IMG/VR virus record: IMGVR_UViG_3300024518_004461
Coordinates: 32,001-96,000 of that record
Direction: 5' to 3' (one strand)
DNA: 64,000 bases
Source of the DNA: a virus
Below are positions 31,711 through 51,812 of this stretch, piece after piece. Each line of letters opens with the position of its first letter. Within the stretch, counting starts at the first letter, position 1. Both the position numbers and the translations under genes were made by a program. The notes beneath the pieces were generated by a model. The model was not told the DNA's origin. It saw nothing but the letters and a program-made list of their open reading frames with translations, and made no database searches.

Positions 31711-32591
31711 TTATATATCCCTTTAGAATGCTTTGGTTCCCACCCAATCTTTCTTATTTTTTTAGAACTCACAGAATAGCGCAAATCTTGACCCCAACGA
31801 TTATCCACAAACTTAACCGACCGTCGATCTTTCTCTTTCCATTTTAGCATTGTATCCACAACTTCAAGATTGGTCATAGGATTTTCGGCTGCAATATTAT
31901 ATGTTTCGTTTTTGATGCCACTCTCAATAATATGAAATATTGCTTCCACATTATCTCTAACATATGTCCAGTCGCGAACATAAGAGCCGTCACCGTGAAC
32001 TGGAATTTGCTTTCCACTTTGTAGAGAATTGAGGCACTTGGGAATTAATTTTTCTTCGTATTGGCGAGGCCCATAGTTATTCGCGCTCCTCGTTATGATA
32101 TATTCCAAACCGAAAGTTCTATAATATGATAAGACTAACATTTCTGCTGCGGCTTTGGTCGCTGAATATGGGTTTGATGGAGTTAGTTTATCTTCTTCAG
32201 TAAAAGAACCTTCCAAGCGATCACCGTATACTTCATCTGTGCTGATCTGGAAAAATAATGGTCGATCATATTCTGGCTTTCCGCGAACAAGTTCTAAAAG
32301 ATTATGGACTCCTAAAATATTACTTTTAACAAAAGGGCTTGTATCGCGGATTGAGTTATCAACATGGCTTTCAGCCGCAAAATTAATAATTACGTCGCAG
32401 GAAGGAAGATGTTTTAGTTCGGATATATCTTCTTGAATTAGGGTGTAGTTTTTGTCTGAATCCCAAGGTAAAATTTTGTGCGAAGCATAGCCCATTTTAT
32501 CAATATCAATAATGGCGATATTTCGTTCTAACGCGGCTTCAACAAAATGCGAGCCAATAAAGCCCCGTCCGCCTGTTACAATAAATTTCAT
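31701..32591 (-). CDS. rmlB: dTDP-glucose 4,6-dehydratase
   Basis: TGGRGFIGS, FAAESHVDNSI, ISTDEVYG, PYSATKA, NNYGPRQ..EKLIP. Confidence 0.95.
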   Translation of the reverse strand: MKFIVTGGRGFIGSHFVEAALERNIAIIDIDKMGYASHKILPWDSDKNYTLIQEDISELKHLPSCDVIINFAAESHVDNSIRDTSPFVKSNILGVHNLLELVRGKPEYDRPLFFQISTDEVYGDRLEGSFTEEDKLTPSNPYSATKAAAEMLVLSYYRTFGLEYIITRSANNYGPRQYEEKLIPKCLNSLQSGKQIPVHGDGSYVRDWTYVRDNVEAIFHIIESGIKNETYNIAAENPMTNLEVVDTMLKWKEKDRRSVKFVDNRWGQDLRYSVSSKKIRKIGWEPKHSKGIYKWF

Positions 32592-50722: not shown

Positions 50723-50935
50723 CACGGCTTATTGGGTAACAAGGAAAACCGTAAAAACCCCGCTTTGATGCTTACGCAGCCAAAGTTAATGCAACATTAT
50801 CGTTAGCAATTATTTGTTTTAAGCCTTTTAGTGTTTGCTCATACACCCTTGCACAAATCTATCTCGACACCGTGTCGAACCCAGTTCACCCCCGTAGTAA
50901 TAAGTATATCATAATAATATAATGTCCTAAAGTTT

Positions 50936-51544
50936 TTATTTCCCACCGTGGGGTTCATCTTGTAGAGAGGCAAGAATATCGTCAATCCATACTGTGTTTG
51001 ATATAAAATTGTATAAGCGATTAACCACCCGAAAATCGCCACACTTCTTATTATCCCAGTGAGCTTTTTTGAGGTGAGATGAGTGAAAAGAAAATCCGCA
51101 CGAGGCAATATCTCCCATGACAATTTTATTACCAAAGGAATGTGTTGGAATAGCCTTCCCCCGGTTAGGGAATTTTACTTTCCAAATATATAGAGTGTCT
51201 TTGTTATTGTTTTTTTCTATGTTTGTCGCTAGCGTTTCTAAGGAACCAGTTGTAGGCAAGTGATCATCGTCATCTAAGAACATTATCCATCCATTCTCTA
51301 TTTCTTTATACATCTCATTAAAATATAAATTATATGGAAAATGTTTAAAATTTTTCTTTTTTTCTCTCTTTACCTGTATGTAATCGGTGGAATTTATATA
51401 TCCTAGTGATGACTCATTATCTATACATAAAATATGACGATAATTTTTATAACTCTGTGAGGAAACACTTTCTTCACACTTTATAAAATACTCTTTACGG
51501 TGTGTCCTTGTAAGTATGTTTATTAAAGGACGCTTCATATTCAT
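50936..51544 (-). CDS. Glycosyltransferase family 2
   Basis: INILTRT, SQSYKNY, WIMFLDDDD, GDF; start refined to lie downstream of the tRNA. Confidence 0.8.
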   Translation of the reverse strand: MNMKRPLINILTRTHRKEYFIKCEESVSSQSYKNYRHILCIDNESSLGYINSTDYIQVKREKKKNFKHFPYNLYFNEMYKEIENGWIMFLDDDDHLPTTGSLETLATNIEKNNNKDTLYIWKVKFPNRGKAIPTHSFGNKIVMGDIASCGFSFHSSHLKKAHWDNKKCGDFRVVNRLYNFISNTVWIDDILASLQDEPHGGK

Positions 51545-51547
51545 ATA

Positions 51548-51620
51548 AGCGAATGGCGGGGTTCGAACCCGCAACTTTCAGATTGGAAATCTGACACTCT
51601 GCCAGTTGAGCTACATTCGC
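51548..51620 (-). tRNA. tRNA-Gly (TCC)
   Basis: GCGAATG/CATTCGC acceptor, U73, D-arm, anticodon arm TCAGA-TTTCCAA-TCTGA, T-arm GCGGG-TTCGAAC-CCCGC; CCA not encoded. Confidence 0.95.
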
Positions 51621-51777
51621 AAAAAAAAAAAAAACAATAAGATTGTTACTTATTCACAGTAACAAAGCTAGGCTCGTTTCAATACTAACATAAGTTAGTT
51701 TGGTTAGCTTCAACAGAGCCATTGAAGCACTCGAATATCACATCAGAAAACTGCTTTATCTTATTGCCCATAAACTA
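51621..51777 (-). ncRNA. Candidate structured ncRNA (unassigned family)
   Basis: Own promoter; closing helix CAATAAGAT/ATCTTATTG, three internal hairpins, GGCTC/GAGCC loop pairing, followed by U14. Confidence 0.55.
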
Positions 51778-51783
51778 ATTTCT

Positions 51784-51812
51784 ATTCTAAACGTCTTTGA
51801 CCCCCTTGTCAA
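51784..51812 (-). promoter_or_regulatory. sigma70-type promoter
   Basis: TTGACA-N17-TAGAAT. Confidence 0.8.

Follow-up and report, generated by a model that had tools for sequence, protein, structure and literature searches.

The stable RNAs called species 1 and 2 of phage T4 lie in the tRNA operon, are co-transcribed with it and are excised by the tRNA-processing enzymes. They are a precedent for a discrete stable RNA made within a phage tRNA cluster, as are the GOLLD and ROOL RNAs, which are found next to phage tRNAs. Cleavage by RNase P at the 5' end of a tRNA would free an upstream leader, in line with the established biology of this enzyme, and further precedents are the 3'ETS-leuZ sRNA and the end formation of MALAT1/mascRNA by RNase P. 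Phage tmRNAs and tRNAs are common in ocean viruses, and both their expression and the reason for their carriage are poorly understood.

A glutamine (glnA-type) riboswitch was proposed at the two-piece tmRNA of Melnitz-type phages and pelagimyophages (Buchholz et al., PMC9004378). HDV-like theta ribozymes, which have the nested double-pseudoknot HDV fold, are located 3' of gut-phage tRNAs (PMC10879173). Thousands of candidate RNAs without a name have been predicted by surveying IMG/VR (PMC10690425). Our literature search, with these 10,006 candidates outside the comparison, found no structured leader of phage tRNA or tmRNA genes.

Here we describe an RNA element that lies between a promoter and a tRNA-Gly gene in a 64,000-nt stretch of viral DNA (positions 32,001 to 96,000 of IMG/VR record IMGVR_UViG_3300024518_004461), referred to below as the window. 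On comparative sequence evidence, the element is confirmed as a real and well-supported new family of phage noncoding RNA.

Organization of the locus

The window is part of a 111-kb virus record with an estimated completeness of 61%. By its baseplate genes the record is that of a myovirus, and phoH and many sugar-modifying genes are also present. All features of the locus lie on the minus strand. An ORF of 125 aa (52164-51787) has no match in PHROG or in Pfam, in the latter case even at E<=5, and its end falls inside a sigma70 promoter, TTGACA-17-TAGAAT (51812-51784). A promoter scan gave 11 of 12 matches to the consensus for this near-consensus promoter, which the original prediction, made from the letters of the window, had placed at the same site. 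The -35 hexamer TTGACA (51807..51812) lies within the last codons of the ORF, which encode it, and the -10 hexamer TAGAAT (51784..51789) overlaps the TAG stop. Judging from spacing only, transcription would start near 51777. The element, 132 nt long (51766-51635), begins about 18 nt past the -10 box. A run of 14 U (51621..51634), also noted in the original prediction, separates its closing helix (P1) from tRNA-Gly(UCC) (51548..51620; called by ARAGORN, 71.9 bits in Rfam) and abuts the tRNA.

The GT2 glycosyltransferase gene that follows (50936..51544; PF00535) is without a promoter of its own. Its ATG (51544, minus strand) stands only 4 nt past the 3' end of tRNA-Gly, and the GT2 mRNA must share the tRNA-Gly precursor or be cut from it. 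A tmRNA of 529 nt (50893-50365) was identified by an Rfam match and missed by ARAGORN. Inside the match lie a perfect 12/12 sigma70 promoter (50722-50693) and an ORF of 82 aa (50682-50434). In the relatives L010, L012, L018-L020 and L043 the tmRNA matches or calls are also about 470-480 nt long, which suggests an insertion within the tmRNA gene.

The tmRNAs of the window's clade have a promoter-like sequence of their own (50894-50940, minus strand, in the window). In close relatives it includes an extended -10 box, TGnTATAAT, after which come ACTTATTACTAC and GGGGG in this order; the window reads TGATATACT. These tmRNAs thus do not depend on read-through from the element, and the control of the tmRNA by read-through, which had been part of the original prediction, is unlikely in the window. 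Only tRNA-Gly and GT2 depend there on the element's promoter. Because these two genes have no other promoter, P1 and the U14 run cannot be a tight terminator.

Distribution of the element

The 125-aa protein was used as a query and gave 34 related viral loci with 48-100% identity, most of which have a conserved core just past the ORF, followed by tRNA-Gly and/or tmRNA. The ORF is kept upstream of the promoter in 34 viral contigs over this range of identity. Some tmRNA-adjacent contigs (for example, L058) lack it upstream of the element, so the ORF is not an obligatory partner.

A covariance model was built from 15 diverse copies with nested helices only, the pseudoknot being left out. Two degenerate DNA patterns gave further viral contigs and 103 metagenome stretches. 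The model confirmed 75 matches in the 91 loci searched, which comprised 80 listed metagenome stretches, 7 bacterial genome matches and 4 viral loci. In total, 70 distinct element sequences were obtained, all from marine viral or metagenomic contigs. In 185,579 bacterial and archaeal species genomes the patterns matched seven times, and all seven matches failed the covariance model. Searches of cultured phages (blastn, and tblastn of the neighbouring protein) found neither the element nor that protein. The family is specific to one clade of marine myoviruses, uncultured and of about 200 kb, and the element is single-copy per phage record (six records checked, 88-186 kb, 48-84% completeness).

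Two divergent variants were noticed. In L027 (3377-3485; 56 bits) the loop GGUC pairs with GACC, and in L033 (3372-3489; aligned by eye only) the loop UCUAU pairs with AUAGA and the P3 loop is GUGAGGA. Given these variants, the family may be wider than the covariance model detects.

Secondary structure and covariation

The element is a three-way junction composed of the closing helix P1, a pseudoknotted hairpin, P2, and a hairpin, P3, joined directly to the 3' strand of P1. In the window (coordinates on the minus strand), the P1 5' strand CAAUAAGAU (51758..51766), extendable by three G-U pairs to 51769, pairs with the 3' strand AUCUUAUUG (51635..51643). As delimited from the alignments, J1/2 (51728..51757) consists of AAA and a variable A/U-rich linker that includes a non-conserved CUGAUG. 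The P2 hairpin (51708..51727) is formed by CUUCA (51727-51723) and UGAAG (51712-51708) around the 10-nt loop AUGGCUCUGU, in which GGCUC (51720-51716) is complementary to a downstream GAGCC (51675-51671), giving an H-type pseudoknot. An optional hairpin, ACUAAC-UUAU-GUUAGU (51684..51699; ACUAAC at 51699-51694, GUUAGU at 51689-51684), occupies the linker from P2 to the pseudoknot 3' strand. J2/3 (51666..51680) contains near-invariant columns and reads GAAAC, then the GAGCC of the pseudoknot, then UAGCU. P3 (51644..51664) has a 7-bp stem of UGUUACU (51664-51658) and AGUAACA (51650-51644) with the 7-nt loop GUGAAUA, and its 3' strand is directly continuous with that of P1.

Across the family the order is P1-P2(PK)-P2'-PK'-P3-P1'. 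P1 has 6-11 bp and is followed by the variable J1/2 and by P2, of 5 bp with the loop AUGGCUCUnn. Then come a linker, in which a hairpin is optional and (G/A)AAAn is conserved, the pseudoknot 3' strand, UAGCnUUG, P3 of 7 bp and, without a spacer, the P1 3' strand. The loop of P3 begins as a GNRA type (GUGA, GCGA, GUAA or GGAA) in nearly all copies. The near-invariant unpaired bases of the element are AUGGCUCU, GAAAn, UAGCnUUG and the GNRA. The GNRA-type loop probably docks on the pseudoknot helix, which contains GG/CC, to give a compact fold.

The minimum-energy fold of the window's copy gives the closing helix and the three hairpins. This single-sequence fold proves nothing, because its advantage over shuffled sequences is modest (z of -2.3) and at least as great on the antisense strand (z of -3.7). 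The evidence for the structure is comparative. Over the 70 sequences, standard pairs fill 93.4% of cells versus 79.6% in shuffles and at most 48.7% with slid partners. Double changes occur in 19 of the 27 pairs, including two pairs of the pseudoknot, and the covariation score of 0.397 compares with 0.140 in shuffles, none of 500 of which reaches it. The sequence of P1 is almost wholly replaced among copies and yet remains paired (AAGAU/AUCUU, GAGAU/AUCUC, GGAGG/CCUCC, AAAGG/CCUUU), with double changes in eight of nine pairs. All seven pairs of P3 have double changes, and P2 is rebuilt as CUCAC/GUGAG in L028-type copies. One pseudoknot pair switches from G-C to A-U in 12 sequences and another from C-G to U-A in 7. 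The pseudoknot constitutes an independent test since it was not in the covariance model, and RNAalifold recovers its helix unprompted. On the sense strand the covariance model gives 106-119 bits, compared with at most 22 bits on the antisense strand, and G-U pairs are frequent.

All the helices of the original prediction can be found in the window. The closing helix, the P3 hairpin (GTTACT/AGTAAC in the DNA), the GGCTC/GAGCC pseudoknot and the choice of strand had all been proposed from the window alone and are borne out by these comparisons. The predicted ACTAAC/GTTAGT hairpin exists in the window but is not conserved family-wide: it is an insert of some subclades, elsewhere missing or replaced by other hairpins. 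Two further predicted stems, AAAGC/GCUUU and GUUUU/GAAAC, can be read in the letters of the window and pair only in its subclade; L003 breaks one of the pairs without compensation, and other clades have unrelated bases at those sites.

Several additional structural proposals were rejected. A junction helix GCUA/UAGC in the tmRNA-adjacent clade is contradicted by an uncompensated change of UAGC to UAAC, and a sixth pseudoknot pair would be unpaired in 41 of 70 sequences. Mimicry of a tRNA or anticodon loop by stacked P1 and P3 with the loop GUGAAnA does not agree with a stack of 13-18 bp and the change of U33 to C in many copies. The bases of a putative boxA within the P2 loop (GCUCUnUUGAA) are paired in the pseudoknot.

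Comparison with known RNA families

Neither the window's element nor those of 20 related loci reached the gathering threshold of any of the 4227 models of Rfam 15; the original prediction, too, had assigned the element to no known family. At E<=10 the window element matched no family, every ribozyme and riboswitch model included; the best sub-threshold model was Qrr, with 21.8 bits versus 50. The Rfam models of the glutamine riboswitch (glnA and Downstream-peptide) gave no match in the window or in related loci.

In a few loci weak matches to the permuted tmRNA model RF04321 overlap the 3' part of the element. We attribute them to the 5' half of the tmRNA together with opportunistic alignment of the pyrimidine-rich P1 strand. 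The element is not the acceptor piece of a permuted tmRNA: its 3' strand pairs and covaries with its own 5' strand, ACCA is lacking, and the downstream tmRNAs are complete one-piece genes.

Could the element be a self-cleaving ribozyme, hammerhead-like or of a new class, that processes the tRNA or tmRNA precursor? The three-way junction, the pseudoknot and the conserved junction bases would suit such an activity, and theta ribozymes next to tRNAs exist in phages (PMC10879173). The original prediction had pointed to a hammerhead-like core in an alternative fold. A hammerhead needs CUGANGA, GAAA and a cleavage triplet at a three-way junction, but outside the window CUGAUG occurs in no copy other than the closest one, the identical L002. 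Close relatives read UUUUUAUAU at this site, the change being found already in those with a neighbouring protein 94-98% identical, and no ribozyme family, hammerhead models included, matched at E<=10. The theta ribozymes sit 3' of tRNAs, and their HDV topology (P1-P2-P3-P1'-P4-P2') has a helix order different from that of the element, which lies 5' of the tRNA. Moreover, tRNA and tmRNA already owe their 5' ends to RNase P. We therefore regard a ribozyme as highly improbable and a hammerhead as rejected.

Promoter, downstream genes and possible function

A promoter was found in 52 of 72 unique copies; in these TTGACA is kept, and its distance is similar. For most members of the window's clade, TTGACA-N16-18-TAnnnT precedes the modelled P1 by 35-60 nt, or by as many as about 80. 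The end of the promoter is separated from the closing helix by 6-30 nt, and from this spacing transcription should start 0-10 nt before the helix. Cargo genes always follow the element, and none was found between the promoter and the element. The next feature downstream is tRNA-Gly(UCC) at 1-14 nt, tmRNA at 0-25 nt, or otherwise a protein gene at about 10-25 nt (a cytidylyltransferase, an epimerase or a gene with a late promoter).

The slot between element and tmRNA holds sugar-nucleotide cargo in a number of lineages. A cytidylyltransferase-like gene (PF01467; 136 aa, L021 3420-3830) comes right after the element in at least seven of them (L021, L096, L078, L122, L084, L129 and L012), and an SDR-type epimerase takes this place in L028 and L080. 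In L014-, L027- and L070-type contigs the gene after the element has its own late promoter motif of the ACTATTTA type. In L014 and L070 the element also ends in an extended helix and a U-run, so it stands alone there.

In 24 of 70 copies the closing helix has at least five T in a row after it, compared with 1.9% of random windows, an enrichment of about 17-fold. Some subclades have a GC-richer outer helix, GAAGUACC/GGUACUUC, just before the U-run, and in L071 and L033 the tmRNA starts 1-2 nt past it. L021, L096, L028 and L122 have no U-run and have a ribosome-binding site and ATG within about 20 nt; in L028 the P1 3' strand AUCUCG can alternatively pair with the ribosome-binding region CGAGGAU. 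Considered as a rho-independent terminator, the helix is long-range, closes a domain of 100 nt and is A/U-rich in the window, and a simple terminator scan made no call. The original prediction is upheld as regards a novel structured RNA. Of the three possibilities that it offered (small RNA, ribozyme or attenuator), the ribozyme is rejected in its hammerhead form, and for the attenuator the U-run is enriched without being universal.

These features are consistent with a cis-acting attenuator or riboswitch-like leader. The core would bind a small molecule or protein and thereby set the rate of P1 closure; P1 with the U-run would then terminate transcription or, where the element is a UTR, the P1 3' strand would free or occlude the ribosome-binding site. 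The effect would be to tune the tRNA-Gly, tmRNA and sugar-nucleotide genes from the early promoter. The element is always sense and directly upstream of genes without a promoter (tRNA-Gly and GT2 in the window, tmRNA in L071 and L033), and its complex fold has invariant junction bases. Together with the enriched U-run, the outer helix of some subclades and the possible alternative pairing in L028, this argues for attenuation, as does the riboswitch proposed earlier beside the tmRNA of Melnitz-type phages (PMC9004378). But about half of the copies have neither a U-run nor another recognisable expression platform, and the downstream genes are heterogeneous, some with promoters of their own. Control by termination and control of a ribosome-binding site have opposite signs, the gene context points to no ligand, a long-range closing helix is an unusual terminator stem, and the stand-alone copies are left unexplained. 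We regard this account as possible, ranking close behind a stable RNA.

A more specific proposal of this kind is that the element is a new riboswitch or ribo-regulator aptamer with which marine jumbo-type myophages detect a signal of the host's state, or else a protein of the phage or the host, and set the output of tRNA-Gly, tmRNA and surface sugar-nucleotide enzymes from an early promoter. The conserved, pocket-like junction and, in a subset of copies, the U-run or the proximity of a ribosome-binding site bear only indirectly on a riboswitch, and we consider the proposal doubtful. If true, it would be the first demonstration that a regulatory RNA gates the genes of stable RNAs (tRNA or tmRNA).

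A conserved boxA-like leader, UG(U/C/A)UCUUUA(A/C)AAnUAU, was observed within the 15-20 nt just upstream of the tmRNA 5' end, directly before the GGGG of the tmRNA, in L131, L058, L061, L031, L043, L030, L032 and others. It matches rrn boxA UGCUCUUUA and an AUU-containing spacer, at 9 of 9 positions in L131 and 8 of 9 in most. The leader occurs with or without the element, which L030 and L032 lack, and suggests Nus-factor antitermination of phage tmRNA transcription. The element itself is not a boxA or nut-type site: the boxA-like sequence is found only downstream of it in the tmRNA-adjacent clade and in element-less relatives, and the window has none in the stretch that separates the element from tRNA-Gly.

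A further candidate is a processive antitermination element of the put, EAR or nut type. By itself or together with Nus factors or a phage protein, the nascent RNA would bind the transcribing polymerase, so that the latter passes terminators and Rho sites across the untranslated tRNA and tmRNA genes and the cargo genes. Its strictly promoter-proximal position, the presence of cargo only after the element and the terminator-like signals downstream are in keeping with such a role. The rrn-boxA match of the tmRNA-adjacent clade lies between element and tmRNA, and EAR, too, is associated with polysaccharide genes. However, the boxA-like sequence is shared with the element-less L030 and L032 and absent from the window's clade, there is no Rfam similarity to put, EAR or boxB, and stand-alone copies with a terminator have nothing to antiterminate. 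Antitermination thus appears unlikely.

The reading that we tentatively favour is a stable, compact noncoding RNA of a new family, freed by leaky termination or by RNase P, with factor binding as its proposed function. Four universal features fit a discrete stable RNA best: the closeness to the promoter, the pairing of both termini, the single copy and a knotted core whose unpaired bases are invariant. Host sigma70 RNA polymerase would start at the early-type promoter, and the transcript, judging from spacing, would begin about 0-10 nt from P1. The RNA would fold into the three-way junction, in which P2 and the loop-to-linker pseudoknot would form an H-type knot, P3 would stack on P1 and the GNRA-type loop would probably dock on the pseudoknot helix. 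Its 3' end might be made by leaky termination at P1 and the U-run or, after read-through, by RNase P cutting where the adjoining tRNA-Gly or tmRNA starts. The predicted product of about 105-150 nt would have both ends locked in P1, display the near-invariant unpaired bases and bind a protein or other factor in early infection, rather than act as a ribozyme. The transcript ends, the stability of the RNA and its binding partner are inferred.

For the stable RNA speak the pairing of the 5' and 3' ends, the stand-alone copies of L014 and L070 and the fact that the element stays beside the promoter whatever gene follows. Against it, L021, L096, L028 and L122 have the element as a plain 5' UTR, an arrangement more in favour of a cis role. 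The tRNA-Gly, GT2 and several tmRNA genes have no other promoter, so P1 and the U-run necessarily gate them, and highly conserved junction bases with a pseudoknot are a hallmark of riboswitch aptamers as well.

Relation to known systems

As a candidate, the family joins the few RNAs of bacteria and phages that have a complex fold but no assigned biochemical role. Its physical tie to phage tRNA and tmRNA genes and to an early promoter provides a handle for experiments, and the element can serve as a marker for an uncultured clade of marine myoviruses of about 200 kb.

The element resembles the theta ribozymes (PMC10879173) in being small, structured and in close linkage with phage tRNA genes, but it lies 5' of the tRNA, has a different helix order and does not match the HDV family. 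The Melnitz and pelagimyophage case (PMC9004378) shares with it a marine myophage tmRNA behind an early promoter and an adjoining structured RNA. The Melnitz element, a match to the glnA motif, is reported to lie at the 3' domain of a two-piece ssrA (PMC9004378), whereas the present element is 5' of a one-piece tmRNA or of tRNA-Gly and has no match to the glutamine riboswitch.

As in the rrn and lambda nut (boxA, boxB) leaders and HK022 put, a promoter-proximal RNA signal precedes untranslated RNA genes, and in one clade a boxA-like UGUUCUUUA follows the element. Unlike the simple hairpins of those systems, the element is a pseudoknotted three-way junction, and the boxA-like sequence is separable from it and absent in the window. 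With MALAT1/mascRNA and the 3'ETS-leuZ sRNA of E. coli it would share an RNA end made by cleavage at an adjoining tRNA-like structure, the difference being that the RNA putatively released here is a 5' leader. Like the T4 species 1 and 2 RNAs, GOLLD and ROOL, it is a structured phage RNA of unassigned role beside tRNA-type genes. It has no sequence or model similarity to any of these (Rfam being negative), is much smaller than GOLLD or ROOL and, unlike all of them, always lies 5' of the tRNA or tmRNA, right after the promoter.
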